Source of the DNA: a virus
Taxonomy: Duplodnaviria > Caudoviricetes
Virus record (IMG/VR): IMGVR_UViG_3300032295_003763
Location: 135,928 to 199,927 of that record
Strand: one strand, 5' to 3'
Length of the DNA: 64,000 nt
The position numbers and the translations under genes were made by a program. A model generated the notes under the pieces. It was not told the DNA's origin. It searched no databases and saw only the letters and a program-made list of their open reading frames with translations. This document shows positions 1-64,000 of the stretch, piece after piece (positions within the stretch are counted from its first letter, which is position 1; the number at the start of each line of letters is the position of its first letter).

Positions 1-419
1 TTACCTTGATTGCCTTGAGTACCCTGAACTCCTTGAACACCTTGGGTCCCTTGAACCCCTTGAGTTCCTTGATTGCCTTGAGTACCCTGAACTCCTTGAA
101 CACCTTGGGTCCCTTGAACCCCTTGAGTTCCTTGATTTCCTTGGTTACCTTGATTTCCTTGGTTACCTTGAGTACCTTGAACCCCTTGAGCTCCTTGAAC
201 CCCTTGCGTACCTTGAGCACCATCAAAACCTAAAGTCCCTTGAACTCCTTGAGGACCTTGAGCACCATCAAAACCTAAAGTCCCTTGAACACCTTGAGCA
301 CCTTGAGCACCATCAAAACCTAAAGTCCCTTGAACACCTTGAGCACCTTGAGTACCTTGATTGCCTTGAACTCCCGTATCACCTTGTGTACCCTGGACAC
401 CTTGAGCACCTTGAGCACC
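1..419 (-). repeat. 9-bp Gly-X-Gln codon repeat with higher-order 63-bp and 45-bp units
   Basis: ccttgannn periodicity; 63-bp duplication at about 5-130; GTLGFDGAQ unit x3 at about 211-340. Confidence 0.9.
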
Positions 420-1820
420 ATCTAATGGAGCTGGATAATCTATCCATAGTCCAGTGGAAGTTTGATAACCCAAATATGCACCATCAGCTGGTGTTGTTAT
501 TGTAACATCATTTAAATCATCTAAATTAATATTAGTAACTGATTCTCCCCCACCAGAAGAAAGACTTCGTATTAATCCACCTTGAATAAAAATCGCATCA
601 CTACCACTTGATAAATCAGTTGCCCCACCTCTTATTACTAGATACCCAAGAAAAACAGCATTTTGTAAAGTTATAGGGGATTCAGCAAATGCTTCATAAG
701 GAAGCCCATTTAAAGCAGAACCTAAACTTGAATACTCCTTAACACCATAATAAACAATAATATCACTAGGCGAATCTGGTATTTGAAATAATCTCTGTAC
801 AGACCATTTATTAGTAGATACAGTAGCTAATGTTCCATCTCCATCATCATAACTTGCTGGATCTATATCTGTATAAAAAGTTCCTGAATTATTATCATAC
901 ACAAATCCACCACTTCCGTCTGCATACATTCTACATAAACTCGAAGGAGTACTTGGTGTTAATGTAGTTATATCGGGTTCAAATGGATCACTTGAATAAT
1001 TATTACCTATAATATAGGCTTTACCAGATGCCCTATCTATTCTGAGATTATTACCATTTGCAGATATATTTAAACCTTCTTTTTTAATCGGTCCAAGTGT
1101 ATTTAAGATTTCATATACCTTATGATTTACACCATATGAAGTAAATGGATCAGTTGTTACTAAATTTACATTTGTAAGATTTATATGACATAAATGACCA
1201 ATAACAATATAATTCTTATAATCATCGTCTGTAAATGGTGTTGTTTTTTGCTGTAGAGCTCCAGTACTATCAATATAAATATAAGTAAATGGGTCAGTTA
1301 ATAAATTTGTGATAGTTTGGTTTGCGAATGCATTCCATTTTACTTCAGTAATATCCTGTGAAAGTTCTCCTGAAACAATTGAGTGTGTGACTATTTGACC
1401 TTGACCTTCTGAAACATTAAATGTAGTTCCACCGATTGTAGCACTTAAAAAACCCCCTGTTTTTATACCTGTAATTTCTATCCCTTCAATATTATTATTT
1501 TCTTCTACTAACCATTTATTATCCCCATAATATACAATAGTTATACCCTGACCTTTACCATCCCATAAATATTGCGAGTTACCTTGAATAGTAGCACCAG
1601 TATCACTACTATTAGGCTTAATGATAATATTACTTACATAATTTGCAGTATCTAATATATGTAACTTATAGCCAAAAGAAATTATACTCCCAGACGCTGT
1701 AATCTGAGGTAGCGTTAATATAGAACCCCCAGCATTAGAACCAGTTACTCGAACTAATTCATAAAGTTGATTTATACTAAGATTACCAGTTGACCAATTA
1801 TATGTATTTTTATACCCCAT
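1..1820 (-). CDS. Collagen-like fibre protein (3' end outside window); ~467-aa N-terminal domain then Gly-X-Gln repeats
   Basis: Not in ORF track. ATG at 1820 (MGYKNTYNWSTG...) is in frame with linker LDDLNDVTITTPADGAYLGY and with GAQ/GTQ/GNQ repeats from 419. Frame checked at both ends and at sample points only. Confidence 0.85.
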   Translation of the reverse strand, partial: MGYKNTYNWSTGNLSINQLYELVRVTGSNAGGSILTLPQITASGSIISFGYKLHILDTANYVSNIIIKPNSSDTGATIQGNSQYLWDGKGQGITIVYYGDNKWLVEENNNIEGIEITGIKTGGFLSATIGGTTFNVSEGQGQIVTHSIVSGELSQDITEVKWNAFANQTITNLLTDPFTYIYIDSTGALQQKTTPFTDDDYKNYIVIGHLCHINLTNVNLVTTDPFTSYGVNHKVYEILNTLGPIKKEGLNISANGNNLRIDRASGKAYIIGNNYSSDPFEPDITTLTPSTPSSLCRMYADGSGGFVYDNNSGTFYTDIDPASYDDGDGTLATVSTNKWSVQRLFQIPDSPSDIIVYYGVKEYSSLGSALNGLPYEAFAESPITLQNAVFLGYLVIRGGATDLSSGSDAIFIQGGLIRSLSSGGGESVTNINLDDLNDVTITTPADGAYLGYQTSTGLWIDYPAPLDGAQGAQGVQGTQGDTGVQGNQGTQGAQGVQGTLGFDGAQGAQGVQGTLGFDGAQGPQGVQGTLGFDGAQGTQGVQGAQGVQGTQGNQGNQGNQGNQGTQGVQGTQGVQGVQGTQGNQGTQGVQGTQGVQGVQGTQGNQG

Positions 1821-1886
1821 TGGGTATTGATTTTTATTTTATTTGGGATTATACCTTTATGGGTACAATTTATATTCTCCTTTGCC

Positions 1887-1894
1887 TATATATC
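1887..1894 (-). promoter_or_regulatory. Putative phage late promoter GATATATA
   Basis: Exact motif upstream of collagen gene start 1820. Confidence 0.7.
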
Positions 1895-1968
1895 TTAAAA
1901 TCAAAGTCTAAACTATAGTCATAGACATTATTAAGAATTAAGAAATGTATTCTCAAATATTTTCAAGA

Positions 1969-3615
1969 TTAAACAATCGAGCCCGTTCCAAGATAAGTCC
2001 AATTTTGACCATTTAGGTCTCCTCTCCATACTCTACTTGTTGTAGATGCAGCTTGAGCAACTGATGGAACATTATATGGGCCTACAGTTCCTTCTCCTGT
2101 CGTTTTGACTCTTGTTTCGACATATTGATATTGTGAATCTCTATACAAATTTAATACATACGTTCTTGGAGATGTTGTATTTCCAAATCTACCGCAATAC
2201 ACTATATTTTTAATAGAGTATTTAGAACCTTGATTATCTATTTTATAATACCAGTTTTGAGTATCACCATCAGTATTAACTAATCCTTTCGCCAACCATA
2301 AGTCTGCTGAATTTCCTGCTATAGTTGCAGATGCTGAACCTACAGCAGCATTAGGGGCTGAATAAATATTACCATTTCCTGCATTTAGTGTGATATAACC
2401 ATTTGTACTCAAATATAAATTTGTACTAGATACACCATTAGATGCAAATGTAGGAATTGTTATAGCTGTAGAACTATTACCATCATCTGCATTTGTGAAT
2501 GTTCCAGAATATAATGTATATCCAGTTGCGTCTGAAGGGAATGCTATCGTATTTGTAGAGAATCTCCATCCGAATCTTGTTGATATTGCATTATAGTTTT
2601 GTAAAATTTCAGTTGGGGATAATGCTCTATTATAAACTTGAACAATTGGAATTTTACCATCGATAGTTTCCAAGTCGTCCCATCTACGAGCAATATAATA
2701 ACCCAATCCACTTGATAATGGGGTTACACTTGTTGTAAGTGTAGATTCTTGAGTTCCATTTTTGTATAATCTTACAGTTGTACCATCATAAGTAACTGCA
2801 GCATTATACCAAACTCCAGTTGAAGGGGTAAACCCCGCTGGAACTTTGAATCCATCGGCAGAAGTAAAAAAACCACCTGTTATTTTTCCATCCCAAGGAC
2901 TTGCACAAAATCCCAAAACAAAATTTATGTTACTTGCATCAACATATCTTTCTGTTATAATTTGAGGGATTACATTTGTTGAAGGAATAGAGTCTAACTT
3001 AAACCAAGCATTTACTGTGAAATTTGTTAGTGCCCCACCACTAAAATCAGAAATTGAAACGTGGTCATTTGTTCCATCGAAATCTAATAAACCTCCATCA
3101 TTAGCATCAACAGAAAATGTAGGAGAATTTACAAGAGTCCCATTATTACTATTATTACTGAAATCATACCAAGTAGAACCAACAAGGGGATATGAATCTA
3201 AGAAACCTGAATCTAAATTCATTACTAATCCACTTGTAACAATAGAAGGATAAATTCTATTTACTAAAATATATCTACCAGTCCCCTTTAACCATGTAAT
3301 AGCATCTGCCAACGTAGAATGATTAGTCTGACCAAACATTTCTTGAAGTTTATTAATAGTTTGCAATAATTCGGATTCTGTTGTTCCAACAGTTATCCAT
3401 GCAGTAGGTCTTCCTTCTTCAAGTGCTGTAAACCCTTGAGAGTAAGTATCAGAATAAATAATAAAACCATTAGGATTATTTACCCCACTCCACCATTTAT
3501 ATCCTGAATAGTTAGCTTCATAAAAATCGTCACCTATACCTATTGCAACATTACCCTTTTGAATAGTATTAGGTATAGAAGAACCATTATTAAATGTTAT
3601 AGGATTCCTTGACAT
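1969..3615 (-). CDS. LamG/concanavalin A-like lectin domain virion protein
   Basis: IVTSGLVMNLD..SYP..GSTWYD, WYNAAVTYDGTTVRLYKNG, VQVYNRALSPTEILQNYNA; starts 1 nt after the collagen stop. Confidence 0.8.
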   Translation of the reverse strand: MSRNPITFNNGSSIPNTIQKGNVAIGIGDDFYEANYSGYKWWSGVNNPNGFIIYSDTYSQGFTALEEGRPTAWITVGTTESELLQTINKLQEMFGQTNHSTLADAITWLKGTGRYILVNRIYPSIVTSGLVMNLDSGFLDSYPLVGSTWYDFSNNSNNGTLVNSPTFSVDANDGGLLDFDGTNDHVSISDFSGGALTNFTVNAWFKLDSIPSTNVIPQIITERYVDASNINFVLGFCASPWDGKITGGFFTSADGFKVPAGFTPSTGVWYNAAVTYDGTTVRLYKNGTQESTLTTSVTPLSSGLGYYIARRWDDLETIDGKIPIVQVYNRALSPTEILQNYNAISTRFGWRFSTNTIAFPSDATGYTLYSGTFTNADDGNSSTAITIPTFASNGVSSTNLYLSTNGYITLNAGNGNIYSAPNAAVGSASATIAGNSADLWLAKGLVNTDGDTQNWYYKIDNQGSKYSIKNIVYCGRFGNTTSPRTYVLNLYRDSQYQYVETRVKTTGEGTVGPYNVPSVAQAASTTSRVWRGDLNGQNWTYLGTGSIV

Positions 3616-3616
3616 A

Positions 3617-7750: not shown

Positions 7751-7782
7751 GCTAAAGGTAATCTTTAATTGCCATAAATAAA

Positions 7783-7825: not shown

Positions 7826-7866
7826 AGTAATAAAAAGGCAAATTTTATTTTCTTGGGTATTTTTAT

Positions 7867-15087: not shown

Positions 15088-15118
15088 CAAAGATAATAAA
15101 AACTAATGAATATTCAAA
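15088..15118 (-). promoter_or_regulatory. Bacteroidota-type host promoter for the topoisomerase operon
   Basis: TTTG-N19-TATCTTTG on the minus strand. Confidence 0.7.
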
Positions 15119-20801: not shown

Positions 20802-20832
20802 CAAATATAGTATAAAGAATAATAAAAACAAA
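20802..20832 (-). promoter_or_regulatory. Bacteroidota-type host promoter
   Basis: TTTG-N19-TATATTTG. Confidence 0.65.
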
Positions 20833-23160: not shown

Positions 23161-23191
23161 TTTGTTTTTATTATTTTTTTTCTTATCTTTG
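23161..23191 (+). promoter_or_regulatory. Bacteroidota-type host promoter, probably giving a leaderless mRNA
   Basis: TTTG-N19-TATCTTTG ending 4 nt before ATG 23196. Confidence 0.7.
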
Positions 23192-32720: not shown

Positions 32721-33605
32721 TTATGCGGTATTTTTATCTGTATTTCCCATAAATAATGAGGACTCTCTCTCTCTTCTTCGTCTTAATCCCTTTTCATATT
32801 TTGTACCCAAATTAATCTTTTCTGTCTTCCATCGTAAAAATGCTTCTTTATATTTCTTTTGATTAATTAAACTAGCAGTCTCAGAACTTGCAAACCCATG
32901 TCCACCAGCATTATATGCAAATGCAACACAAGCAGCGTACATATTTAATGTCATAGGAACATGAATAGCTCCTTTAACAGCTTCCTCAAATCTTTGCAAA
33001 TCACTTTTATAGAGTTCTTCTGCCTTTTCTTGAGTAATCCTTTCCCCCATTTCGTATTGACTATTCAACATATGTCCATACCCAATAGCCCAATGTTTTA
33101 CATCCCAGAACGGTTCAAGTCTTGCTCTACCCTCAAGTCCTCTTATAAAATCTATAGCTTCATCTGTTAAATACCATTTATCCTTTTCAAGATAAACCCC
33201 CTTCATATCTTCCACAACTTCCTTTTTCTGCAAGTCTATAGACCAAGTTGATACAACTGAAAAATCTATATGTGGAAATATTTTTTCAAGTTCTTTAGCT
33301 AAAGAGTCTATTTTTACTATATCTTCTTTTCTTGTTACTATTTTTTCAGATATTTCTATGAAATTAATAGACTGTAATGTTGCAATACCACTAGTACCCC
33401 TTAAGTTATTTACATCTAAAGTTATTCTCACCTCATCATTTGCTTCCAGTATATGAGCACCGTCTTTTAATAGCTTTTGATCGATTGCCTGTACCATTAC
33501 ATCTGGAAATCCCTTTTGTAATAATTCTTCTAATAAATTAAAAGGTACAAATATCTTAATACGATTAGTTACATCTGGACTATTTTCTAGAATCAAAGAT
33601 TTCAT
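32721..33605 (-). CDS. GH24 phage lysozyme with ~140-aa N-terminal extension
   Basis: FIRGLEG..L..FWD..WAIGYGH, AFAYNAG, GLRRRRERE. Confidence 0.88.
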   Translation of the reverse strand: MKSLILENSPDVTNRIKIFVPFNLLEELLQKGFPDVMVQAIDQKLLKDGAHILEANDEVRITLDVNNLRGTSGIATLQSINFIEISEKIVTRKEDIVKIDSLAKELEKIFPHIDFSVVSTWSIDLQKKEVVEDMKGVYLEKDKWYLTDEAIDFIRGLEGRARLEPFWDVKHWAIGYGHMLNSQYEMGERITQEKAEELYKSDLQRFEEAVKGAIHVPMTLNMYAACVAFAYNAGGHGFASSETASLINQKKYKEAFLRWKTEKINLGTKYEKGLRRRRERESSLFMGNTDKNTA

Positions 33606-33624
33606 GTAAGAAATTAATTTGATT

Positions 33625-34356
33625 CTATATATTCAGAATTTTAGTTGAAAATTGAAAATGTTTATCCCATTCTTCTTTTATTCTACAAGGATATTGATAA
33701 TTATGACCCCATTTTCTTTCTTTATTGATTTGACTTAATCTTTTTTCATACAACTTTCGTCTTTCTTCTAATCTTTCAAGGCCGCCTATATTTTTACAAT
33801 GTAGTAATTTTAATGAAGGATATTTATCATATACTATAGCCCCAGATGGAAAACATGCATGGCAACCATGTTTGAATCCGATTTCTTCTATAAGACTTGG
33901 ATCAAAAATTGGTGTTTTGTCATACCATGTATCTCGCATTCCCTTTGTTATTTCAGTCCATATTGGTTTATTTGAATCAGGTAATGTTTCAGACCACATA
34001 GAAAATCCAGTTGTCTGAGGTATACTTATTCCCTTTCTTTTACATGATATTAAAAATGATTCTAAATCTGGGTGATAAATAAATTCATCTAGATCTAATA
34101 CACAAACCCAATCATAATCTCTGAATTCTTTCCAAGCATTATTTTTAATATCTAAATAAACATCGTCCCTAATTTCACCGTTTGTATCATAAACTCTTCT
34201 TTCTACCAAGGGATGTTCATCACATATTTTAGCAGTTTCATCATCAGATTGATTGTCATAGACAATAATTTTTTCGCAAAATTTTTCATAATGATTTAAA
34301 AATATTGGCATTAATGCTTGTTCATTCCAAGCAATTGTAATACATACCATCTTCAT
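33625..34356 (-). CDS. GT2-like glycosyltransferase
   Basis: IAWNE, YDNQSDDET, WVCVLDLDEF. Confidence 0.85.
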   Translation of the reverse strand: MKMVCITIAWNEQALMPIFLNHYEKFCEKIIVYDNQSDDETAKICDEHPLVERRVYDTNGEIRDDVYLDIKNNAWKEFRDYDWVCVLDLDEFIYHPDLESFLISCKRKGISIPQTTGFSMWSETLPDSNKPIWTEITKGMRDTWYDKTPIFDPSLIEEIGFKHGCHACFPSGAIVYDKYPSLKLLHCKNIGGLERLEERRKLYEKRLSQINKERKWGHNYQYPCRIKEEWDKHFQFSTKILNI

Positions 34357-34847
34357 GGTAATTTACCTGTATGTTTAAGAATTATGTATTCTACATATTC
34401 TTCAGAATCTTTTTGATCTCTAATTAAATTTTCCCAGCTTTCTTTAAAATAAAAAGGTACTGGATGAATTCCTATATTAATCCATAATCCAATACACATG
34501 TTTTCTTCTTCATCTTCTACACAATCACCGACACTATGACTTATATCTAAAGAAATAAGTGCTTCAAATATCAGTTCCATAGCTTTTGCTATTTCTTTAA
34601 ATGTTGCTTCTAAATCATCTCCAGCGAAATGTATAGTATCTATCACTGAAACTACATAATCATCTGGGTCTACTCCTTCATCTATTATAGCTTGTTCAGC
34701 AGTTTTTAAGTCTAATTCAAATTCTTCAACACCTAATAGATTAATTATAAGTGTTGGATTACCATCTTCATCTTCACTTTTAATATAAACACCTGACCCC
34801 CATTTATTATTAAAAGCTTCAATTATGTAATCTGAAACATCTATCAT
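34353..34847 (-). CDS. Highly acidic hypothetical protein with an internal two-fold repeat
   Basis: About 38 D/E versus about 10 K/R in 164 aa; ATG 34847 in TAATG overlap. Confidence 0.7.
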   Translation of the reverse strand: MIDVSDYIIEAFNNKWGSGVYIKSEDEDGNPTLIINLLGVEEFELDLKTAEQAIIDEGVDPDDYVVSVIDTIHFAGDDLEATFKEIAKAMELIFEALISLDISHSVGDCVEDEEENMCIGLWINIGIHPVPFYFKESWENLIRDQKDSEEYVEYIILKHTGKLP

Positions 34848-35545
34848 TATGTTCTCCAATTTAATGTATCCAAAACATTATTTCTATTATTAACATCATT
34901 TGATATGTGATAAACCCATTCAGTCTGATATTGTAAATTTTGTGGATACATATAGTTCCAGCATTCTTCAGAATATTCAAAAAATGTATCATTCATATCA
35001 GGCGATATACATCTTGCTGCATAATTAAACAGGGCTTGTTCATAAATTGCATTAAATCTATCATAATTCAATTCTGGCATAATACATCTTACCATATGAC
35101 ATAATCTTCTGAAAGTAGAAATATCAGCTAGCATAAAGCCTGTATTAAAATACATATCTGGTCTTTCTATTATATTCAACATTTGTTGTTGTTGATTAAT
35201 TCTTAAAAGATTATATGTATGTTGATTTAATGTATTTTGGTAATTACCTATTCTCTCATTACCATTTTGAACTGCCCTCAATTTATTAGGAACAATCAAA
35301 GTAAAAGGAGTCGGTGTGTCTTGTCTAATTATGCAATCAGCATCGAAAAATGCTACTTGATCATAATCCTTTACAATATGGTCAATATAAGCTTTTGTAA
35401 AGGTTATACCAAAAGAATCACCTAATATATTTTGATCGAATGAAATAAAATCAGCATCCCATCTTTTAGATGCTTCAATCATCGAATCTTTAGAGTTTTG
35501 ACTTTGGAAATCATTTATATCAATTGTTAAGACTACTCTTTTCAT
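34847..35545 (-). CDS. GT-A fold glycosyltransferase, GT8-like
   Basis: FFDAD, YFNTGFML, YEQALFN, WNY, VYH; ATG 35545 in ATGA overlap. Confidence 0.8.
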   Translation of the reverse strand: MKRVVLTIDINDFQSQNSKDSMIEASKRWDADFISFDQNILGDSFGITFTKAYIDHIVKDYDQVAFFDADCIIRQDTPTPFTLIVPNKLRAVQNGNERIGNYQNTLNQHTYNLLRINQQQQMLNIIERPDMYFNTGFMLADISTFRRLCHMVRCIMPELNYDRFNAIYEQALFNYAARCISPDMNDTFFEYSEECWNYMYPQNLQYQTEWVYHISNDVNNRNNVLDTLNWRT

Positions 35546-36270
35546 TTTGATCTCCAATCATAATCTTTTATGGTGTCTTTTATTTTCCAAAAGTTATATC
35601 CTGTAAAATGCCAGACATAACTATTCATTCTAGGTTCTTCAATAGGAGGCTCTAAATAATTCCAAGATTCATTTATAATAGTTAGATCATTCGGACGTAT
35701 TCCCTGAACAATATAATTAAATAAAGCTTGTTCATAATGTGCAGAAAAAGAAAATATCTCTCGACCATCTGTTAAGGGAAGTGCTTGAGATATAGCTTTA
35801 AAAATAGACTTATGCCTTTTGGTAGAACATAAGAAAAATCCTGAATTGAAGAATTTATCTAAAAAGATTTCTCTAGATATATTCCATCCAAATTGTTGTT
35901 CTAGTATATTATAATAATACTCTTGATTATTATTCTTTACATTAAACCACATCTCTTCATCCTTTTTATATCTTTGTGGATGAATGTCTAATGTAGCATA
36001 AAATTTATTTTCATCTGAAAAAACTTCAAAAGGATTAGGCGTATCAATATGAATCAGCATATCAGAATCAAAATATACAGCCCTTTCGTAACCTTCTATT
36101 TTTTCAAATGAACATATTTTAGCAAAAGATGGATATAATCTAGTGTCAAATATTGTTCGTATTTCTAAATAGTCACATCCCCATCTATCAGCAGCGTGAG
36201 AAATAGATTCTCTAGCATTAGATGACATGTGATTATTTATATTTACTGTCCAAACAAGATTCTTACTCAT
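35542..36270 (-). CDS. GT-A fold glycosyltransferase, GT8-like, paralog of 34847-35545
   Basis: YFDSD, DTPNPF, FFNSGFFL, YEQALFNY, WNY, VWHF. Confidence 0.8.
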   Translation of the reverse strand: MSKNLVWTVNINNHMSSNARESISHAADRWGCDYLEIRTIFDTRLYPSFAKICSFEKIEGYERAVYFDSDMLIHIDTPNPFEVFSDENKFYATLDIHPQRYKKDEEMWFNVKNNNQEYYYNILEQQFGWNISREIFLDKFFNSGFFLCSTKRHKSIFKAISQALPLTDGREIFSFSAHYEQALFNYIVQGIRPNDLTIINESWNYLEPPIEEPRMNSYVWHFTGYNFWKIKDTIKDYDWRSK

Positions 36271-36888
36271 TTAGATATGAACTCCAAGAACTTTTTCAAC
36301 TCTTACATGTCTAAACTCTTTTGAAAGAGCTTCATATGTATAACCATCAGAATAAAACCCTTGCTCTGCTACCCAACCTATCTTTTCAATAGCTTCTCTT
36401 TTTACAACAACTTGTAATGTATCTATACCACCAACAACTATCGGCCAACCTGTAAGAACTTGAGGCGGTTTACCTACCCACGCTTGAAGTGGACCCATAT
36501 GGAGAATCTGACATACAGCAAATCCTACATCTGAATCTGTACCTTCCAATGCACCTACCATCTCTTCAAGGAATTCTGGAAACATTACATTATCATCATC
36601 TAAGAATGCAATGTATTTCCCATTTAACATAGGCATAGCAAGTTTTCTTACCGATGCACCATAATCAGCATGATTCTCTTCTAATTCTATAAATTGTCTT
36701 TTAGGATCATCTTTTGATTTTACTGAAAAATATTCACGCAAAACTGGATCAGGTCCATCTGAAACAATAACATGTTCCCAATCTTGAAATGATTGCCAAT
36801 TAACACAAGCCATGCAACGATTCAGCATTTTTATCCCTCTATTCCAAGTGGGAGTTAAAACGCTTATTGTTGGGTTTTTCTTTTTCAT
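36271..36888 (-). CDS. GT2-family glycosyltransferase
   Basis: ISVLTPTWNR, WEHVIVSDG, YIAFLDDDN. Confidence 0.88.
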   Translation of the reverse strand: MKKKNPTISVLTPTWNRGIKMLNRCMACVNWQSFQDWEHVIVSDGPDPVLREYFSVKSKDDPKRQFIELEENHADYGASVRKLAMPMLNGKYIAFLDDDNVMFPEFLEEMVGALEGTDSDVGFAVCQILHMGPLQAWVGKPPQVLTGWPIVVGGIDTLQVVVKREAIEKIGWVAEQGFYSDGYTYEALSKEFRHVRVEKVLGVHI

Positions 36889-36924
36889 ATAAATCTCTTT
36901 AGAATGTTTTTTATTATATGTTTT

Positions 36925-38235
36925 TTATTTAGTAAAGTTCAATCCGTTATCAATAAAAATTTTAGCAGTTTTATTAACATTACTCTGTTTTATAGATTTT
37001 AAAATTTCTCTACCTATTCTTTGTGCAACATTTACATTAGTAGCTCTGCCCATTAATATCCAGCTTGTTCGCCATCCCAGTGCAACTTTATATTCTTCAG
37101 GAAATCCTTGTAATCTACATAACTCTCTGGGAGAAAGTCTTCTTAAGAACTCATCATTTACCCTTTGTCCAGTTTCTAAAAATTCTGGAGCGTTTATTTC
37201 ATCATATATTAAATTCCTATCCCATCCTTGTCCACCAAATGAAATAGATTTAGATTCTCGTTCTGGATCTAAAATAATAGATGTATATTGATATCCCCTA
37301 TCAAGATTTTTCTTATTCATTTTATTTAAATAATCTAAATGAGTCTGAGTTAAGTAAAGATTTGGATTAGGATTATTTTCTAAAATATCCTTTAGCTTCC
37401 AAACTCTTTTTTCAGGTTTTGGCCAATTGAAAGTTAAAGCAGACAGTGGATTAGCAAATGCTACTATCCACACTCTTTTTCTTAATTGCGGTACTCCATA
37501 ATCAAGTGCATTAAGAAATGATGGGTTTACTACATAGTATCCAGTTTCTTCTTTTAATGTACGACAAGCAACTGCTGTAGAAACCTCTAAAGATTCATCT
37601 CTTTGAGTTTTTCTACATTCTATCATTATTGCTTCTGGTTGTAGTTTATTTATTAATTGTAATAAAAGATACCAGTTAGTATCTGTCATCTTATCAGCCT
37701 TAGGCTTAATACCTTTGTTCAAAGGTAAAGATTCAATATTAACTGAAGACGTTAGTACATCTACTTTGGGGAAATTACCATGATAATTATCTATATTAGT
37801 AAAAGGTATGACACCAAAATTTGAATAGTATGATTTTATAAAACTAGTATGCTCATATTTATCTTCAAATGCAAATGTACACGCTCCACCCTCTTTCATT
37901 AAAGCTACCGTAGCTCCACCAGAATTACAAAATATATCAGCAAACTTGAAATTAAAATGTTCAGGAGGAGGAATAGGTATATCATAATCTATTAAAGTTT
38001 TATCTTTAATACATTCATTCAATATCCTTTTGAAACTTGTACTGATTTTTGATCTTTTTATTATTTGTATAATGTCATCAAAATACAATACTTCCTCATT
38101 AGATATAGCTCTTGAAAATAAATGGGTTATTGCAGAAGCATGAGATGTGTATCTTTTACGAGTTCCTCTAGAAAATTTTTCTATATCTGGAATTTTCCAT
38201 TTTAAATCTTCAAAGATTTTTTTCAAGGAATACAT
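36925..38235 (-). CDS. C5-cytosine DNA methyltransferase homolog, predicted inactive
   Basis: Motifs VIII (YGVPQLRKR) and IX (RLSPRELCRLQGFP) intact; motifs I, IV (PC), VI (ENV) and X (GN) substituted. Confidence 0.85.
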   Translation of the reverse strand: MYSLKKIFEDLKWKIPDIEKFSRGTRKRYTSHASAITHLFSRAISNEEVLYFDDIIQIIKRSKISTSFKRILNECIKDKTLIDYDIPIPPPEHFNFKFADIFCNSGGATVALMKEGGACTFAFEDKYEHTSFIKSYYSNFGVIPFTNIDNYHGNFPKVDVLTSSVNIESLPLNKGIKPKADKMTDTNWYLLLQLINKLQPEAIMIECRKTQRDESLEVSTAVACRTLKEETGYYVVNPSFLNALDYGVPQLRKRVWIVAFANPLSALTFNWPKPEKRVWKLKDILENNPNPNLYLTQTHLDYLNKMNKKNLDRGYQYTSIILDPERESKSISFGGQGWDRNLIYDEINAPEFLETGQRVNDEFLRRLSPRELCRLQGFPEEYKVALGWRTSWILMGRATNVNVAQRIGREILKSIKQSNVNKTAKIFIDNGLNFTK

Positions 38236-38514
38236 TTACCACCTTGGCTCAGATAGGGGACATTTTGTTAATGTTAATCTAGCTTTAGCTTTAATAAAAC
38301 AACCACAAGCCATACAACGCTCTTTTACAGGGTCTCTATAATTACATGATCTACAAATTTCAACTCTTTGTAAATATAATGGATCTGTATCTGATAGTAT
38401 ATGAGATTGATGCTTGGGTTCAGATACCGTATTAGTTACTGTCTGTGTAGTTTCTGATAATTTAGTTGTAGTCTTAATTATATTTTCTTTTGATTTATTA
38501 CAACCACATCCCAT
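38236..38514 (-). CDS. Small Cys-rich, probably Zn-binding protein
   Basis: MGCGC start; R..IC..C, C..CGCFI..K, CP...W. Confidence 0.75.
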   Translation of the reverse strand: MGCGCNKSKENIIKTTTKLSETTQTVTNTVSEPKHQSHILSDTDPLYLQRVEICRSCNYRDPVKERCMACGCFIKAKARLTLTKCPLSEPRW

Positions 38515-38541
38515 ACTTATTCTCCTTAAAAATATTGAAAA

Positions 38542-39807
38542 TTATAAAACTAACCAACGACCTTGAGCACCTGCGGTTGAAGACGAATATACAACTTTTA
38601 CTGCTGCATATGGATTTATTTCTAGATCAGAACCACTTTGAGTCATTATTCTTCTCGATGTTGCTCCAGCAGTTAGAGAATTATTTCTAACAAACATAGA
38701 ATATGCTGTTTCATTAGAAATTATAATGTCTCGTCCATCTGTATTATCTGCAATACCAACCAGAGAAAAAGATGATGTAGGATTACCTCCAATTTTAGCA
38801 AATGATGTATCAGCATTAAGTGTCAGTTCTAAAGCAGTTGAATCATTTTTTGTTATATTTTGATTTACCTTTGGACAATCACAAGGTCCTTGAGGTCCTT
38901 GGACTCCCTGAAAACCTTGTGTACCTTGATCCCCTTGAGGTCCATCTGGCCCTTGATAACCTTGAAAACCTCTAGGTCCAGTTGGACCTTGTTCACCAGT
39001 CGCACCTTGAACTCCCTGTGTACCTTGAGGTCCTTGAGGTCCTTGTGGACCTTGGTTTCCTTGATTACCTCCACCTTGATTACCCTGATTACCCTGTTGT
39101 CCTTGACGACCCTGATTACCTTGAGGTCCAATAATTCCTTGAACACCTTGTAATCCTTGAGATCCTTGAATTCCTTGAACACCCTGAATACCTTGATTCC
39201 CTTGAGGTCCATTCAAACCTTGAGGTCCCGTTCTACCTTGAAAACCTTGTCCTCCAGTTATACTAGCAGGGTATCCTTTTTCTCCTTCATATTTATATGC
39301 AGTAACCGCACATGGATTAGATATAGAAACGCCTTCTGGTAATCCATTAAAAAATGTAATGACACCTGAATTATAATTAAAAATCCAATCATTTTGTCCC
39401 AATGGGATAGGTAACCATGTTGATGTACCTATATCGTATTTCCAAACTTTTGCTTGATAATCTACTCCAAACAAACTAGGAGGAATACAATCTTTCAAAT
39501 CACCAGTAGAATCATAAAACGCATTATCACTACCTTCATCAAATGTTAAAGCATATTTATGATATTTGGTAAATATTAGATCTCCTGAATCAGAATATGT
39601 TGTACCATCTGGGACAGCATCAGATTTATGAGGATTAGTTGCAGGTATTCTATCAGAATCTATCCAAAGCTGATTTGGATTAATTGGCATTACTTCTGAA
39701 AATGATTCTTCAAAATGCTCAAGACTTATATTTGTTGTAGCTTTATTAGCTTCAACTATATTATAGGTTACATGACTTTTTTGATTAGGGGTTAATCCAG
39801 TACTCAT
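38542..39807 (-). CDS. Collagen-like virion protein with a central ~125-aa triple-helix region
   Basis: G-X-Q repeats ending QGPCDCPK, globular domains on both sides. Confidence 0.85.
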   Translation of the reverse strand: MSTGLTPNQKSHVTYNIVEANKATTNISLEHFEESFSEVMPINPNQLWIDSDRIPATNPHKSDAVPDGTTYSDSGDLIFTKYHKYALTFDEGSDNAFYDSTGDLKDCIPPSLFGVDYQAKVWKYDIGTSTWLPIPLGQNDWIFNYNSGVITFFNGLPEGVSISNPCAVTAYKYEGEKGYPASITGGQGFQGRTGPQGLNGPQGNQGIQGVQGIQGSQGLQGVQGIIGPQGNQGRQGQQGNQGNQGGGNQGNQGPQGPQGPQGTQGVQGATGEQGPTGPRGFQGYQGPDGPQGDQGTQGFQGVQGPQGPCDCPKVNQNITKNDSTALELTLNADTSFAKIGGNPTSSFSLVGIADNTDGRDIIISNETAYSMFVRNNSLTAGATSRRIMTQSGSDLEINPYAAVKVVYSSSTAGAQGRWLVL

Positions 39808-45485: not shown

Positions 45486-47260
45486 GACATCATTTTATAG
45501 ATATCTCCCATATTCTTTACTCCAAATGGATTATCAGTAGCCATAGCTTCTAGCTTTTTGTTTATCTCTTTCTTATATCTATCTTGAACACCTTCATCCC
45601 AAATTTCACTTACACAATCTGGGAGAACCGCTGATTTAAAAAATGCCATAAGATTTACAGTACTCATAGCAAGATCATCATGACCTCTTTCATTTGAATA
45701 CGTTCCAGCTTCATTAACACCAAATGTTGTAAATTCAGCTATTGTCAAATCATGTGTTAAAATGATTCTTCTAGATCTGAAATTTGGTCTAAATTCTTCA
45801 CAATAAATTCGTTTCAATTGATTATTCAGTTTAATACCAGGTTTGAATACTTTGTCATCACTTTTATGTTTGGTTGTTACAAAGAGTTCTGAAAAATATT
45901 CTTCGTGCTGAGACATAAGTTCTAAGAAATAATTACCATTATAATTCATTTCTAATACTATCTTTAAACGTTCTTCACCTAGTACATCATAAACAACAGC
46001 ATTTACTATTTTAACAAAATCTGCTATAGATACTGTATTAGACCTAAATACACCTACTTGTTTTAATCCAAAAAAGTCCACTTCCCCACTGTATAGTTTA
46101 TGTCTCCTTATGGCTCCCATACTTAATGGAACTAATCTAAATATATTTAATATAGTGTAATCTCTATTAGCACCTTCTGCTAAATCTATAGACATTACAA
46201 AAAACTTTTTACCTAATCTAAATCTGCCATTGTTATCCTTATAATCAAAATCAAACGAAGAATCCCAAACTAAATCTTTATAGTTTATATCTTGATCATG
46301 AAGGGAATCTATTTCTCTAAATTCATATTTATTTTCGCATTTCTTTGCAAATGAAATAGATTGAGTATCCAATAAGAATGAAGAACTTGCAACAAATTGA
46401 TTACCGAATTCTTGATTAAAGGCTTCTTCACTACCTAGATCGTTAATCCATTTTTGTTTCCATACTTCATCTCTTCCTGGAACTTGCCACCAATCAACTC
46501 TCAAAGGTTTAAAGTCGCTCTTATTCTTTATGGCATTATCATAAATTTCGTAAAATAGATTTAACCCGTTCGCAGTTGAGGTTATTAACATTTTAGAATC
46601 TTTCACAGACGAAAGTGTAGGCAAGATTGATTTATAGAATGACCTTGCAATTTTCTCAGGAATATATGCAAACTCGTCAGCGAAAATAACATCAAAAGTA
46701 AAACCAATCGCTGGAGATTCTGTACAAGCTTCTGCGAACATACGACATCCGTTATCGAATGACATTTTACCCATATTATTTACCAGTGAACCAGGTTTCA
46801 TGAAAAAAGGTAAATGACGTAAAATTGTTTTGGTTTTATCTAAAATTTCTTCAGATGTTGCTCTTCTATTTGCGATAACCAAAACATTTTTATCTACATG
46901 GAAACATACATACCAAGCTAAAAATATACAGGTTGTGATAGTTTTTCCTATCTGTCTAGATGCTAAAAAGACTACTCTATCATTATCTGCATATGATTTG
47001 ATAACCTGTTCTTGATAATCTCTTAATTTAATTCTTTGAACGCCATTATCAGTTTTAGCATAACAATAATTATTAGCGAAATAAAGAATATCTCTTTGAC
47101 ATTTTATAATTTCTTCTAGTTCTTCTTGAGTGTATTCAAACGCAATTTTAGCAGCTCTCCAATCTGTGTCACCTTCAGCAAATGGGTTTTGTCTAGGTAA
47201 AGCTTCACCATTAGTAATTCTTTCAAATAATTCATTGACACTTTCAGTGCTCCAAGCCAT
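45482..47260 (-). CDS. gp17: Terminase large subunit
   Basis: LRDYQ, ASRQIGKT, IFADEFA, ITSTANG, NQEF, SIDLAEG, HDDLAM. Confidence 0.95.
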   Translation of the reverse strand: MAWSTESVNELFERITNGEALPRQNPFAEGDTDWRAAKIAFEYTQEELEEIIKCQRDILYFANNYCYAKTDNGVQRIKLRDYQEQVIKSYADNDRVVFLASRQIGKTITTCIFLAWYVCFHVDKNVLVIANRRATSEEILDKTKTILRHLPFFMKPGSLVNNMGKMSFDNGCRMFAEACTESPAIGFTFDVIFADEFAYIPEKIARSFYKSILPTLSSVKDSKMLITSTANGLNLFYEIYDNAIKNKSDFKPLRVDWWQVPGRDEVWKQKWINDLGSEEAFNQEFGNQFVASSSFLLDTQSISFAKKCENKYEFREIDSLHDQDINYKDLVWDSSFDFDYKDNNGRFRLGKKFFVMSIDLAEGANRDYTILNIFRLVPLSMGAIRRHKLYSGEVDFFGLKQVGVFRSNTVSIADFVKIVNAVVYDVLGEERLKIVLEMNYNGNYFLELMSQHEEYFSELFVTTKHKSDDKVFKPGIKLNNQLKRIYCEEFRPNFRSRRIILTHDLTIAEFTTFGVNEAGTYSNERGHDDLAMSTVNLMAFFKSAVLPDCVSEIWDEGVQDRYKKEINKKLEAMATDNPFGVKNMGDIYKMMS

Positions 47261-55942: not shown

Positions 55943-55945
55943 TTT

Positions 55946-55953: not shown

Positions 55954-55981
55954 CTATATCAAAGTAAAATTTTATGAAAAT

Positions 55982-57580: not shown

Positions 57581-57584
57581 ATAA

Positions 57585-58145: not shown

Positions 58146-58146
58146 T

Positions 58147-59789: not shown

Positions 59790-59822
59790 TTATAAAATTT
59801 ATAAAAAACAAAATTTGATTTT

Positions 59823-59830
59823 GATATATA
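59823..59830 (+). promoter_or_regulatory. Putative late promoter GATATATA
   Basis: Exact motif upstream of the S1-like gene. Confidence 0.7.
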
Positions 59831-59879
59831 TAGTGTAGATATAAAATTTATTTTTTTCTCACTAGTAAGGAAAATATTT

Positions 59880-61034
59880 ATGACGAACAAAATCGTCACC
59901 GACCTTCTTCTAGGCAATTTTGATGATAATTTATTAGAAATGAGTAATGATACTTATTTTCAAAAAATCCTAGAACAACCCACCATTACTAAAGATCTTC
60001 AAACAGGAGCGGTTTACAAAATATCTCATATTTTACCATATGGTAAGGATAGAATTACTGTTGTTACTGAAGAATTTGGAGAAATTCCTGTACAGCTTCG
60101 TAAAGAAAAGGAATTTTTAAAGTTAATTGATTGTAGTATAGAACAATTCCTTGAAGCTCTATTAGAAGATGTACCTAGCGTTCAGCTCCCGACTCATGTA
60201 ATGACTGTTAAGTATGGTTCTGAGCTTGAAGGGACCTTAATGGGTGCTTATGTTCATGCCTTAAAACAAGAGCTATATTCAGAGATTAAAAATCCTGAAA
60301 AGGTTTATATGGCTCATGTTTTAGAGAGAAACAAAGGTGGATTTTTAGTTAATGTTAATGGACTTTATGGATTTCTACCAGGTTCATTAGCAGCTGCTAA
60401 TAGAATTCTAGATTTCGATTTGTATCTTAATACTAAAATTCCAGTTATGGTAGAAGATTATTTACAAGATTCTGATATGTTTATTTTCTCTAATAAGAAA
60501 TATATCAAGAATATGATTCCTATAGAAATTGAGAAATTATCGAAAACTGAAAAATATAAAGGTAATGTAACTGGAACTTCAAAATTTGGAATTTTTGTTG
60601 AGTTTAATACAATTTTGACTGGTCTTATTCATACAAGTGAAATGGACAAAGAACAAATTGAAGAATTCAAAAAAGGAAAATGGAAAGCAGGAAGCGAAAT
60701 AGAGTTCTGGATTAAAGAGATTACTAATGATAATAGACTTATTTTGACATTCGTAGATCAAAATGCTATGAATCAGAAATATGAATCTTTAGCTTCTTAT
60801 GAAGCACAGATGGAAGAGAGTGGTCAAAAGCCTATTTATTTAGGTCATATTGTTTCTGTCAAGCCTAATGTAGTTTTAGTAAAGATAGAGGATAATATTA
60901 TAGGAGCTCTGGCTGAAAAAGATTTCAAGAAATTTAAAACAGCACCTATGAAAGTATCTGATGAATTGAGAGTAAAAATCGAAAAGATTGATATTAGCAA
61001 GAGAAGAATGACATTAAATGTGGTAACTGCTTAA
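59880..61034 (+). CDS. Ribosomal protein bS1-like protein with three recognisable S1 domains
   Basis: NKGGFLV...GFLPGS; GNVTGTSKFGIFVEF...GLIHTSE; V.IEKID..KRRMTL. Confidence 0.85.
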   Translation: MTNKIVTDLLLGNFDDNLLEMSNDTYFQKILEQPTITKDLQTGAVYKISHILPYGKDRITVVTEEFGEIPVQLRKEKEFLKLIDCSIEQFLEALLEDVPSVQLPTHVMTVKYGSELEGTLMGAYVHALKQELYSEIKNPEKVYMAHVLERNKGGFLVNVNGLYGFLPGSLAAANRILDFDLYLNTKIPVMVEDYLQDSDMFIFSNKKYIKNMIPIEIEKLSKTEKYKGNVTGTSKFGIFVEFNTILTGLIHTSEMDKEQIEEFKKGKWKAGSEIEFWIKEITNDNRLILTFVDQNAMNQKYESLASYEAQMEESGQKPIYLGHIVSVKPNVVLVKIEDNIIGALAEKDFKKFKTAPMKVSDELRVKIEKIDISKRRMTLNVVTA

Positions 61035-61035
61035 T

Positions 61036-61398
61036 ATGGCTATAAGTGAAATATATTGCAAACTGACAAATGATCCTTACTTCGAATCGGATAGATTAGA
61101 AGTAACTAATGAAATAGAAGCATTAATTGAAAAGATAAGAATGATAATGCTTACGAAGAAAGGAGATGTTTTAGGTGAACCTGAATTTGGAGTTGATCTA
61201 GAGAAATATATTTTTGAGACATTTTTTGATAGAAGGGCTATACTTTCTGAAATTAATAATCAATTCTCAAAATATATCCCAGAACAAAATAGATTTGATC
61301 TCAATACAAGAGTTGATATATCTAAAGGAGAATTTAGGGATAACATAATTGTAGATATATTTATAAATCAAGAAAAAATACTAGGTTTTGCAATTTAA
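61036..61398 (+). CDS. gp25: Baseplate wedge protein gp25-like
   Basis: TKKGDVLGEPEFGVDLEKYIFE. Confidence 0.85.
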   Translation: MAISEIYCKLTNDPYFESDRLEVTNEIEALIEKIRMIMLTKKGDVLGEPEFGVDLEKYIFETFFDRRAILSEINNQFSKYIPEQNRFDLNTRVDISKGEFRDNIIVDIFINQEKILGFAI

Positions 61399-61401
61399 AT
61401 T

Positions 61402-61429
61402 AAAGGGGTCTACTTAGACCCCTTTTTTT
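61402..61429 (+). terminator. Intrinsic terminator
   Basis: aaaggggtct-actt-agaccccttt plus U-tract. Confidence 0.85.
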
Positions 61430-61460
61430 ATGCATAATTATTGTATTGCTTTAATTATTA

Positions 61461-61468
61461 GATATATA
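61461..61468 (+). promoter_or_regulatory. Putative late promoter GATATATA
   Basis: Exact motif upstream of gp6. Confidence 0.75.
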
Positions 61469-61493
61469 GAATATCTACAAAATTATATGAAAT

Positions 61494-63218
61494 ATGAAGC
61501 AATTTTTCAAGCTAAATAGAATTACATTCCAGCGTTTATATGAGGACGCTCAATCTTGGTTTCAGACTGTTTATAATTTAACTAGAGATCAATTTACACC
61601 AGCTTCTCCTTGGGGACAATTATTAGGTACACTGATAAATCTCGCACAAATGATATTTTATTATATTGAAGATAGTATAACAGAACTTAACATTAATACT
61701 GCTTCAAGAAGAGAATCCATTATAGGCATAGCTGCGATGAACGGTCATTCAGCGACTCGTTCAACTGGTGCTAGGGGTGATATAATTTTAGAATATTCTG
61801 GTGAAAATGTTGATATGTATGGTCAAAGTATAATCATACCAAATTATACTAAACTCTTTTGTTTAAATAATGGTCAAAGTTATATACTTGATTTAAATCA
61901 AGATGATATTAGAGTTAATATTACAAACAATGACAAAAATAAAGTAAAGATTATACAAGGAGTATGGGAAAATCAAACATTTACAGGAACTGGAGAAATA
62001 CTTCAATCATTTGAGGTGAATGTTAGAGGAAGAAAGGAAATTGATGAAAACTATGTATTCGTTTATGTAAATGGTGAGTTATATCCAAAATATGAGTCTT
62101 TATATGATATACCTTTAGGTAAAGCTGGATGTTTAATTAGAACTGGTATGACATCTGGTATAGATATTTTCTTTGGTACGGAATTTAATGGTAAAGTTCC
62201 TGCACTTGGTTCTACTATTAGAGTTGAATACCTAATAACTAATGGATCTTTAGGAAATATATTATCAAATATAAATGATGTTACATTACGTTGGGATGAA
62301 ACTGGTTATGATATTACTGGTAAAGAAATAGATTTAAATTCAGCTCTAAGCACTAGTTTAGCTACTCCTTTAGTATTTGGAACTGACCATGAGCCAATAG
62401 AATTAACAAGACTTATAGCACCTAAAATCAGTAGATCATTTGTTCTCGCAAATGCTGAAAATTATTCAATATTTTTACAAAAGATGAATTACTTCAGTAT
62501 TGTAGAATGTTTTTCTACATTTGACGATAATGTAGAAGAAGACGACAATGTAATTTATATTTTTGCTATACCTGATATTTTAAAAAGAGTAAGAAACAAT
62601 GAGGACTATTTTACAATACCTCAAGAACAATTTACTTTAACAGATACTGAAAAGAATTCAATTTACAGGCTTTTACAAGAGTCAGGTCAAATGATCGTAA
62701 CGACTGCTGTGAAAGTATTAGATCCAGTTATTATAAGATATGTTTTAAATGTTTCTATTATTGTATTTGAAGGTTATGATGTTGAAACAATCAGGGAAAA
62801 GATAGTAGAAAGAATCGCACAATATTTTCTAAACAATAAAAGAAGAGATAGAATACCTAAATCAGATTTAGTTGCTATAATAGAAGCTATAGATGGAGTC
62901 GATTCTGTCGATTTATATTTTGTAAATGAAGGAAATGAATTGAACAAATATAATTGGTTAGAAGAACTAAAGACTAACCCTAGTGCTGTAGAACCTGATG
63001 ATATTGGATTAGATGAACATGGTAATATAATTATTGGGAAAAGCGAATTGCCTATTTTAAGAGGCGGATGGTCAGATAGAAATGGAGTATCCTTTCAAGA
63101 TAATGCAGATTTAACTATAACCAGTTCTGTAAATGTTGACATATCTAGAATAACTCCTAGAACAGTTAATTCCGAATTACATTCGACTGGAATTAAAAAT
63201 CTTAAAGGCTTAAAATAA
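61494..63218 (+). CDS. gp6: Baseplate wedge protein gp6-like
   Basis: TASRRESI..IA...G, IFFG...GKVP..G..I.VEYL.TNG..GN, G.D.EPIE..R..AP. Confidence 0.85.
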   Translation: MKQFFKLNRITFQRLYEDAQSWFQTVYNLTRDQFTPASPWGQLLGTLINLAQMIFYYIEDSITELNINTASRRESIIGIAAMNGHSATRSTGARGDIILEYSGENVDMYGQSIIIPNYTKLFCLNNGQSYILDLNQDDIRVNITNNDKNKVKIIQGVWENQTFTGTGEILQSFEVNVRGRKEIDENYVFVYVNGELYPKYESLYDIPLGKAGCLIRTGMTSGIDIFFGTEFNGKVPALGSTIRVEYLITNGSLGNILSNINDVTLRWDETGYDITGKEIDLNSALSTSLATPLVFGTDHEPIELTRLIAPKISRSFVLANAENYSIFLQKMNYFSIVECFSTFDDNVEEDDNVIYIFAIPDILKRVRNNEDYFTIPQEQFTLTDTEKNSIYRLLQESGQMIVTTAVKVLDPVIIRYVLNVSIIVFEGYDVETIREKIVERIAQYFLNNKRRDRIPKSDLVAIIEAIDGVDSVDLYFVNEGNELNKYNWLEELKTNPSAVEPDDIGLDEHGNIIIGKSELPILRGGWSDRNGVSFQDNADLTITSSVNVDISRITPRTVNSELHSTGIKNLKGLK

Positions 63219-63230
63219 TTACCATAAACT

Positions 63231-64000
63231 GTGGCCGAGACTTCTAAATTTAGTTATACCTGCTGTTGTGTAGATGAATTAAAATTTTGGGTAAACCAAA
63301 CACAATCCCCTACCCCAGAAAGTGGTGCACAAGGTGCTCAAGGTATTGGTGTACAAGGACCTCAAGGTACTAGTGGAACGCAAGGTAGTGGTGCACAAGG
63401 CGCACAAGGTAGACAAGGTACTAATGGAACAATAGGTCAAGATGGCCTTCAAGGTGTACAAGGTACTCAAGGCGTACCTGGATTTGGTACTGGTACACAA
63501 GGTAATCAGGGTACTCAAGGTACTCAAGGCAGACAAGGTACTCAGGGTAACCAAGGCACTCAAGGTACGCAAGGTATACAAGGTGTTCAGGGAATTCAAG
63601 GCGTTCAAGGAACTCAGGGTGATCAAGGCAACCAAGGAAATCAAGGTTCTATAGGAATTGGTACACAGGGTAATCAAGGTGTTCAAGGATTACAGGGTGT
63701 TCAAGGTTCTGTAGGGAATGGTACACAAGGAGTTCAAGGAACTCAAGGCAACCAAGGCAACCAAGGTAACCAAGGTAACCAAGGTGCACAAGGTACACAG
63801 GGGGTTCAGGGAACTCAAGGCAACCAAGGAAATCAAGGTAACCAAGGTAACCAAGGTGCACAAGGTACACAGGGGGTTCAGGGAACTCAAGGCGTTCAAG
63901 GAAGACAAGGCAACCAAGGTAACCAAGGTAACCAAGGTGCACAAGGTACACAGGGGGTTCAGGGAACTCAAGGCGTTCAAGGAAGACAAGGCAACCAAGG
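63231..64000 (+). CDS. Collagen-like fibre protein (runs off window)
   Basis: Not in ORF track. GTG 63231 gives MAETSKFSYTCCCVDELKFW...ESGAQGAQG, then G-X-Q repeats to the end. Confidence 0.85.
   Translation, partial: MAETSKFSYTCCCVDELKFWVNQTQSPTPESGAQGAQGIGVQGPQGTSGTQGSGAQGAQGRQGTNGTIGQDGLQGVQGTQGVPGFGTGTQGNQGTQGTQGRQGTQGNQGTQGTQGIQGVQGIQGVQGTQGDQGNQGNQGSIGIGTQGNQGVQGLQGVQGSVGNGTQGVQGTQGNQGNQGNQGNQGAQGTQGVQGTQGNQGNQGNQGNQGAQGTQGVQGTQGVQGRQGNQGNQGNQGAQGTQGVQGTQGVQGRQGNQ

Follow-up and report, generated by a model that had tools for sequence, protein, structure and literature searches.

The enzymes HpaII and MspI recognise the four-base palindrome CCGG. Bacteriophages are known to lose such sites: about one-tenth of viral genomes, mainly those of non-temperate double-stranded DNA (dsDNA) phages, are reported to have eliminated orthodox Type II sites wholly or almost wholly, and far fewer sites are avoided by coliphages with modified DNA (PMC6286503, Rusinov et al. 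2018). C5 cytosine methyltransferases (MTases) that are mutated at the catalytic cysteine bind their own sites very tightly and block replication forks, which is lethal (PMC4437897, Henderson and Kreuzer 2015). The stretch of DNA described here (the window) is 64,000 bp long and forms the last 64 kb of the 199,927-bp virus record IMGVR_UViG_3300032295_003763 (G000:C1:135928-199927). It is entirely free of CCGG and carries the gene for an apparently inactive C5-MTase homologue (P0001). The absence of CCGG is a lineage-restricted, statistically heavy observation that is fully confirmed.

The window holds no CCGG when both strands are counted. An apparent absence had been noted in an earlier sequence-only reading of the window, and it extends to the whole record and to related phages. 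The same reading had put the CCG and CGG trinucleotides at about 100 each and the chance expectation for CCGG at roughly 15; the computed counts are 102 and 96, and the expectation lies between 13.8 sites (order-2 Markov model) and 25.3 (mean of dinucleotide-preserving shuffles of the window, standard deviation 5.0), with 25.0 under an order-1 model. The other sites that it listed as present all occur (GGCC 20, GCGC 9, CGCG 7, GATC 183 and CCWGG 34 times in the window). For the whole record, zero CCGG stands against an expectation of 59.6 (order-2) or 84.8 (order-1), with a Poisson P of <= 1e-26. CCGG is the sole 4-mer with a zero count in the record, the next rarest being CGCG (19) and GCGC (24). 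All 16 NCCGGN contexts are missing, which implies that the avoided word is the 4-bp CCGG and not a 6-bp site. The genome-wide Markov comparison also places CCGG far below expectation while the CG-containing palindromes are unequally depleted, with order-2 observed/expected ratios in the record of 0.90 for TCGA, 0.62 for ACGT, 0.56 for CGCG, 0.39 for GCGC and 0.00 for CCGG. The genome-wide depletion of CpG is already contained in the Markov expectations for CCGG.

The strong selection against CCGG that the earlier reading proposed is borne out at the level of codons and in a comparison with a close relative. The codon-level model covered 203 non-overlapping open reading frames (ORFs), or 92% of the genome, and held the proteins and the codon usage of each amino acid fixed; 66.5 CCGG sites were expected and none was seen. 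Among 707 dipeptides in which Ser, Pro, Thr or Ala is followed by Gly, a codon of the form NCC preceded GGN zero times versus 43 expected. Selection against CCGG thus acts on the DNA, independent of protein coding. The close relative is the contig L125, to which 21 kb of the window could be aligned at 88% nucleotide identity and a synonymous divergence (dS) of about 0.4. At 30 positions three bases of a CCGG are conserved between the two phages and the fourth is variable, and the completing base is found at 0 of the 30. Transitions such as CTGG to CCGG, in either direction, are normally commoner than transversions. Between the window and L125, transversions between CTGG and CAGG number 12 and those between CCTG and CCAG number 10, and the transition between CTGG and CCGG does not occur at all. 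An empirical substitution matrix predicts about 15-18 CCGG sites in the 21 kb, and none is seen. Given 0 of 30 completing bases against some 15-18 expected sites, the purge is ongoing; the absence of CCGG is actively maintained and is no frozen relic.

A contig was counted in the same lineage if its capsid protein was at least 77% identical, if its terminase was at least 85% identical or if it encoded an orthologue of P0001. These contigs, about 193 kb from approximately eight distinct phages, contain no CCGG versus 49.5-58 expected, and synonymous sites are saturated across the lineage. Avoidance differs among related phages, being total in the close lineage while two distant T4-like phages retain sites. 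The first of these (G001, 172 kb, capsid 40% identical) has 28 CCGG versus 40-59 expected and only 4 CGCG versus 27. The second (G002, 217 kb, terminase 37% identical) has 224 versus 113-141, so that CCGG is over-represented; here GCGC (1 versus 38), CTAG (24 versus 315) and GATC (160 versus 814) are scarce. G002 is the record of L039 (IMGVR_UViG_3300043080_000181, 217,491 bp) and has two C5-MTase-like ORFs (L044 and L045).

Other palindromes are avoided as well, and the set changes from phage to phage (counts are given as observed/expected). In the record of the window the avoidance is milder, with GATC at 528/793, CTAG at 391/473 and GCGC at 24/62; GCGC is the second most depleted 4-mer there, and AGGCCT (3/20) and GGCCC (13/58) are likewise low. 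Within the lineage, L005 (IMGVR_UViG_3300017788_000163) has GATC at 2/73 and CTAG at 0/45, L034 has ACGT at 2/21 and L027 has CTAG at 4/39. GCGC is wholly absent from several close relatives (L125, L126 and L003), where 7-8 would be expected per 21 kb. Such member-specific avoidance suggests that host restriction-modification repertoires differ within one phage lineage. Pressure from Type II restriction is expected to leave just such a trace, in which the short palindromes that are avoided shift from lineage to lineage.

The dead methyltransferase of the earlier reading proved to be real: P0001 (436 amino acids) has the C5-MTase fold without the catalytic cysteine and with motifs I, VI and X altered. 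It consists of an N-terminal helical domain, the MTase core, a target-recognition domain (TRD) and a short C-terminal tail, and it matches Pfam PF00145 with E = 1.7e-36 (122.5 bits). Its best solved relative is M.HhaI (phmmer E = 2e-21), which is also the top Foldseek match (TM score 0.73) of an AlphaFold (AF2) model with a predicted local distance difference test (pLDDT) score of 87.7 and a predicted TM (pTM) score of 0.89. In the alignment with M.HhaI, Asn-Ile (N166-I167) stands where motif IV should have its Pro-Cys. Motif I reads FCNSGG (FxGxG lost), motif VI reads ECR (ENV lost) and motif X reads GRAT (GNSV lost). About 25 orthologues with 40-92% identity, all of about 436 amino acids, show the same losses: across the clade motif I is FCNxGG, motif X is GRAT-like and motif VI is IEC or IES, with only the Glu kept. 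By contrast with these losses, motif VIII (QxRxR) is kept, with Q250, R252 and R254 invariant, and motif IX (RxLxxxExxRLQGF) is conserved. A cysteine occupies the catalytic position in 0 of 23 full-length clade members, and judged by its motifs the protein is predicted to be inactive throughout the clade.

The gene is nevertheless under purifying selection and is not decaying. The ratio of nonsynonymous to synonymous divergence (dN/dS) of P0001 versus its L125 orthologue is 0.10 at a dS of 0.38, compared with 0.03-0.22 for neighbouring genes. Pairwise identity within the clade is 0.56 for the TRD, 0.59 for the core and 0.37 for the N-terminal domain. The N-terminal ~90 residues (1-93) form a confidently modelled small helical domain that is the fastest-evolving part of the protein and is common to the cellular methylases of HpaII operons. 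A capsid-targeting leader at this end, of the kind that T4 cleaves, was considered and is unsupported, since the orthologues do not share the Ile-Phe-Glu (Ile-x-Glu) of residues 7-9; the idea is also countered by the confident folding of the domain and by its alignment, from residue 27, to the N-terminal domain of the cellular enzymes. An exhaustive profile search of 1.84 billion representatives recovered only three or four 50%-identity clusters of the dead form and no half-dead intermediates, the motifs being intact in everything outside the clade. The top active relatives include P0122, P0123, P0136 and P0138, very long proteins (1014-1146 amino acids) in which two to three C5-MTase-like modules stand in tandem; the HpaII-type GGMGRERN loop is present in some of these proteins. 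In the literature that could be searched, nothing relevant was found on phages with a dead C5-MTase or on phage genomes that lack CCGG.

The best-scoring active relatives of P0001 are two proteins of Bacteroidota (P0027 and P0028), which are 30-32% identical to it and have the same ~90-residue N-terminal domain. The P0027 family is found in 59 cellular genomes, mostly of Bacteroidota, and a full-length HpaII-family endonuclease (PF09561) lies immediately downstream in 9 of 10 tested loci (E from 1e-64 to 1e-140). Among 149 MTase-bearing loci, R.HpaII is adjacent in 12 of the 17 whose TRD resembles that of P0001 versus 9 of the 132 others, and TRD similarity is associated with R.HpaII adjacency (Mann-Whitney p = 4e-10) in a sample that was seeded with P0027 relatives. 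An hhalign profile comparison with HpaII-operon methylases runs collinearly along 381 columns and takes in both the N-terminal domain and the full TRD (E = 5.7e-56); the TRD aligns at ~30% identity, and the TRD alone finds family members by BLAST at 38-52 bits. From the HpaII-operon neighbours, the collinear TRD and the profile match it is concluded that P0001 probably descends from a methylase of the HpaII-operon type. A quick maximum-likelihood tree recovers the dead proteins as one monophyletic group, borne on a very long stem whose attachment point is not fixed. The earlier reading had matched CCGG to the specificity of the dead MTase. This stands as a statement on ancestry, by way of the HpaII-operon relatives and the collinear TRD; as a statement on present specificity it is less secure, as the recognition loop is GGQGWDRN in P0001 versus GGMGRERN in the active enzymes (W for R and Q for M), and P0001 may or may not still recognise CCGG. 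At two cellular loci (L069 and L071) the P0027-type methylase is followed by a 208-residue ORF without a Pfam match instead of an HpaII-family endonuclease, which may be a different partner nuclease or a sign of a degraded system.

The record encodes a Gp23-type major capsid protein, a T4-type large terminase, a prohead protease, a tail sheath, a baseplate wedge protein, a topoisomerase II and a class II ribonucleotide reductase. The T4-type capsid, terminase, tail and baseplate genes mark the uncultured phage as a distant T4-like jumbo myovirus. Its terminase gene had no megablast match in the GenBank phage collection. The record has a GC content of 31% and is about 52% complete by CheckV, and many of its ORFs are without family assignment. 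An MTase protein identical to P0001 is also on record for a 348-kb contig. The host phylum is suggested by promoters. The pattern TTTG-N19-TAnnTTTG, which is typical of the primary sigma factor of Bacteroidota, occurs five times in the window (Table 1) versus 0.72 expected, a number reached by 0 of 100 shuffles, and genome-wide the spacer length peaks at 19-20 nt, pointing to Bacteroidota as the probable host phylum. The matches that begin at 15088, 20802 and 23161 are intergenic and adjoin gene starts. A strong Bacteroidota-type spacing peak is also seen in G002, at 20 nt (22 matches). HpaII-family endonucleases are encoded by 9 of 401 sampled species representatives of Bacteroidota, two of the nine being seed genomes, and by the Bacteroides thetaiotaomicron control.

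The explanation that probably holds is classical restriction-site avoidance directed against CCGG-cutting enzymes of Bacteroidota hosts, with the dead methylase as a recycled former counter-defence gene. The phage lineage, whose cytosines are presumably unmodified, would infect Bacteroidota that often enough carry a CCGG-cutting Type II enzyme of the HpaII family or an isoschizomer. A phage that gained a CCGG would be cut in such hosts, and new sites would be removed by selection, mostly through synonymous codon choice, leaving the genome without a target. The dead MTase would be a captured HpaII-type methylase that once protected progeny DNA. Its chemistry may have been lost once there was nothing left to methylate, or once methylation became a liability, and the protein would have been kept for a second, probably DNA-binding, role. 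Which enzyme selects, which host is infected and in what order the events took place is inferred from these findings. Counted in favour of restriction avoidance is that searches of the 200-kb record found neither a dCMP-hydroxymethylase/thymidylate-synthase-like gene nor a TET/JBP gene. The earlier reading had offered host restriction avoidance and self/non-self discrimination by a phage protein as alternatives; the former fits better, in light of the member-specific palindromes and of an unrelated viral contig, and the latter is less favoured. This contig (L015, IMGVR_UViG_3300020045_008535, 18.5 kb of 48.5 kb) has zero CCGG versus about 26-30 expected, and its C5-MTase homologue has intact SPCQ and ENV motifs and looks active. 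Since L015 is free of CCGG without the dead MTase, total avoidance of CCGG arises independently of the dead gene.

Several points weigh against this explanation. A cognate endonuclease in the host is hypothetical, and HpaII-family enzymes are sporadic, occurring in ~2% of the sampled Bacteroidota representatives when the two seed genomes are set aside. The avoidance of CCGG is absolute and constant while every other palindrome fluctuates, a pattern for which a constant, phage-borne agent would be at least as natural a cause. Nor does restriction avoidance by itself account for the purifying selection on a dead methylase of the CCGG type. Only about half of the genome is covered by the record. 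If restriction avoidance is correct, it makes a prediction on the uncultured host, which should belong to a lineage of Bacteroidota where enzymes that cut CCGG are widespread.

The main alternative, which is clearly less likely, is that the phage avoids a CCGG reader of its own. The dead methylase would bind CCGG and flip the cytosine, could neither methylate it nor release it normally, and would clamp host DNA as a roadblock or targeting subunit; the phage, being CCGG-free, would be spared by its own protein, and this stage may have followed an initial purge driven by restriction. Such a role would account for the purifying selection on P0001 and for a TRD that is as constrained as the core. 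The residues that hold the flipped base (the motif VI Glu and the QxRxR of motif VIII) are invariant while the nucleophile and the S-adenosylmethionine (SAM) motifs are gone, which also speaks for it. Ancestry among HpaII-operon methylases, the constancy of CCGG avoidance where other palindromes vary, and the presence of both the gene and zero CCGG in every relative whose syntenic position is covered also agree with it. There is a precedent in the Cys-to-Ala mutant of M.EcoRII, which formed tight complexes at its own sites, blocked replication forks and killed E. coli (PMC4437897). However, binding by P0001 is a prediction, and with a changed recognition loop its specificity may differ. The gene lies among late structural genes, so that early action on host DNA would need packaging of the protein, and the putative capsid-targeting N-terminus is not conserved. 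At any one site, a double-strand cut selects more strongly than a single bound protein does, and no nuclease partner was identified in the operon. Complete avoidance in L015 occurs without this protein, and the co-occurrence of gene and avoidance is one clade-level event. It is doubtful that the converted methylase acts as a CCGG reader on host DNA only, blocking replication, transcription or packaging or marking the DNA for another enzyme, with self told from non-self by an absent 4-bp word.

Still less probable is a CCGG-specific endonuclease of the phage itself that degrades host DNA and whose gene lies in the part of the genome that is missing from the record or is an unrecognised ORF. The partial record, the 348-kb contig with the identical MTase and the many ORFs without family assignment leave room for such an enzyme, and the unvarying avoidance would be in keeping with an agent that the phage always brings along. 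Yet neither HpaII-family (PF09561) nor MspI-family (PF09208) endonucleases were found in the incomplete 200-kb record, the conserved neighbourhood of P0001 holds no candidate, and the proposal is purely an argument from missing data. Passive mutational decay, in which a formerly active phage methylase and deamination of 5-methylcytosine left a relic without current selection, has very little to commend it. The products of inner 5-methylcytosine deamination are somewhat raised in the record (CTGG 1.36 and CCAG 1.22 versus the order-1 expectation) and are not raised in G002, but CCTG is equally over-represented (1.30), so that the signal is not specific; moreover the methylase is dead in the entire clade, so that the mutational drive stopped long ago, and the 15-18 new sites expected since the divergence from L125 did not appear. 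Chance, base composition or an assembly or library artefact can be dismissed, as Markov models that allow for low GC and a CpG observed/expected ratio of 0.50 still expect 60-85 sites, the remaining CG palindromes do occur, the same absence is seen in independent contigs of several metagenome sources and related genomes of the same GC content hold 28 and 224 CCGG sites. Both passive loss of 5-methylcytosine sites and chance are effectively excluded.

The gene for P0001 belongs to a conserved block (32721-39807, minus strand) that consists of a collagen-like fibre gene, a DUF6171 ORF, the dead MTase, and a run of GT2, GT8, GT8, a 168-residue ORF, GT2 and a lysozyme-domain protein (Table 1). The block is bounded by the collagen-like fibre gene and by the prohead protease and capsid genes, lying just upstream of the latter. 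The stop codon of the DUF6171 ORF abuts the start codon of the MTase, and this pair is kept in all orthologous loci. Gene order is the same in every orthologous locus (L002-L005, L125, L126 and L128), and the block is absent from G001 and G002. The genes downstream of the MTase are conserved context and may or may not be tied functionally to CCGG; the block has a protein with a DNA-methylase fold at the head of a run of glycosyltransferases. By Pfam, PHROGs annotation and synteny, no candidate for a nuclease partner was found in the conserved neighbourhood or operon, and an active C5-MTase partner for P0001 was sought in vain in the phage record. The gene and the avoidance of CCGG co-occur in one clade, which amounts to a single event. 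A search for relatives of the operon without the MTase, which used capsid, terminase and GT2 in viral contigs and the MTase profile in metagenomes, returned only the same lineage, in which contigs without the MTase simply end before its position.

Table 1. Features of the 64,000-bp window
Feature	Position	Strand	Basis
CCGG-free DNA	1..64000	.	0 observed; whole window and whole 199,927-bp record
Bacteroidota-type promoter match, TTTG-N19-TAnnTTTG	15088..15118	-	exact consensus match
Bacteroidota-type promoter match	20802-20832	-	exact consensus match
Bacteroidota-type promoter match	23161-23191	+	exact consensus match
GT2, GT8, GT8, unknown 168-aa (amino acid) ORF, GT2, lysozyme-domain protein	32721..36888	-	Pfam and PHROGs matches, downstream of the dead MTase
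C5 cytosine methyltransferase homologue P0001, predicted catalytically dead, 436 aa	36925..38235	-	PF00145
Cys-rich ORF, 92 aa, DUF6171	38236..38514	-	Pfam PF19668, E = 1.3e-6, 29.1 bits versus cut-off 27
Bacteroidota-type promoter match	45842-45872	+	exact consensus match
Bacteroidota-type promoter match	61186-61216	+	exact consensus match

The more interesting part of the locus is that a methylase of the matching restriction-modification type has apparently lost its chemistry and is kept under selection in a genome without its substrate. Should P0001 still read CCGG, nature would here have made a sequence-specific DNA clamp out of an enzyme, and phages would have a new way of telling their own DNA from that of the host. 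Otherwise it would be a rare documented case of a counter-defence gene that was recycled after the loss of sites had made it redundant.

Phage T4 offers one parallel, as phage factors directed at cytosine DNA, such as Alc and the nucleases for host DNA, leave its hydroxymethylcytosine DNA alone. The CCGG-reader hypothesis resembles this arrangement in that a phage factor would act on host DNA because phage DNA lacks the feature that is read; T4 relies on a base modification, whereas here an absent 4-bp word would serve and the activity is hypothetical. Mammalian DNMT3L is a catalytically inactive, conserved paralogue of C5-MTases. Like P0001, the inactive paralogue DRM3 of Arabidopsis (PMC2965745) has the MTase fold, has lost catalysis and is still under selection for a non-catalytic role, but both DRM3 and DNMT3L are partners of active paralogues, and for P0001 no such partner was found in the phage record. 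The laboratory mutant M.EcoRII-C186A (Henderson and Kreuzer 2015, PMC4437897) is, like P0001, a C5-MTase without its nucleophile in which the recognition and base-holding parts are intact. It differs in being a point mutant that keeps SAM binding, while P0001 is natural and long diverged, has lost the SAM motifs and is a putative DNA-binding protein. The HpaII-type methylases of Bacteroidota (the P0027 family) are the best-scoring full-length relatives of P0001 and share with it the ~90-residue N-terminal domain, a collinear TRD and a GGxGxxRN loop. Unlike them, P0001 is without the Pro-Cys, FxGxG, ENV and GNSV motifs and without an adjacent endonuclease, sits in a phage late-gene block beside glycosyltransferases and is separated by a long tree stem.

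The closest described system is restriction-site avoidance in non-temperate dsDNA phages (PMC6286503). As in those phages, a short palindromic orthodox Type II site has been wholly eliminated, the elimination is largely synonymous and lineage-specific, and weaker, variable avoidance of other palindromes accompanies it. Unlike in those phages, the host and its endonuclease are hypothetical here, and a deeply diverged lineage with very large genomes shows total avoidance without variation. The avoidance itself is thus a known phenomenon of which this phage is a very clean and unusually large new example, as the full genome would be expected to hold more than 100 CCGG sites and tolerates none. 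What is unusual is the pairing, in that a conserved and apparently inactive homologue of the cognate methylase coexists with the eliminated site.

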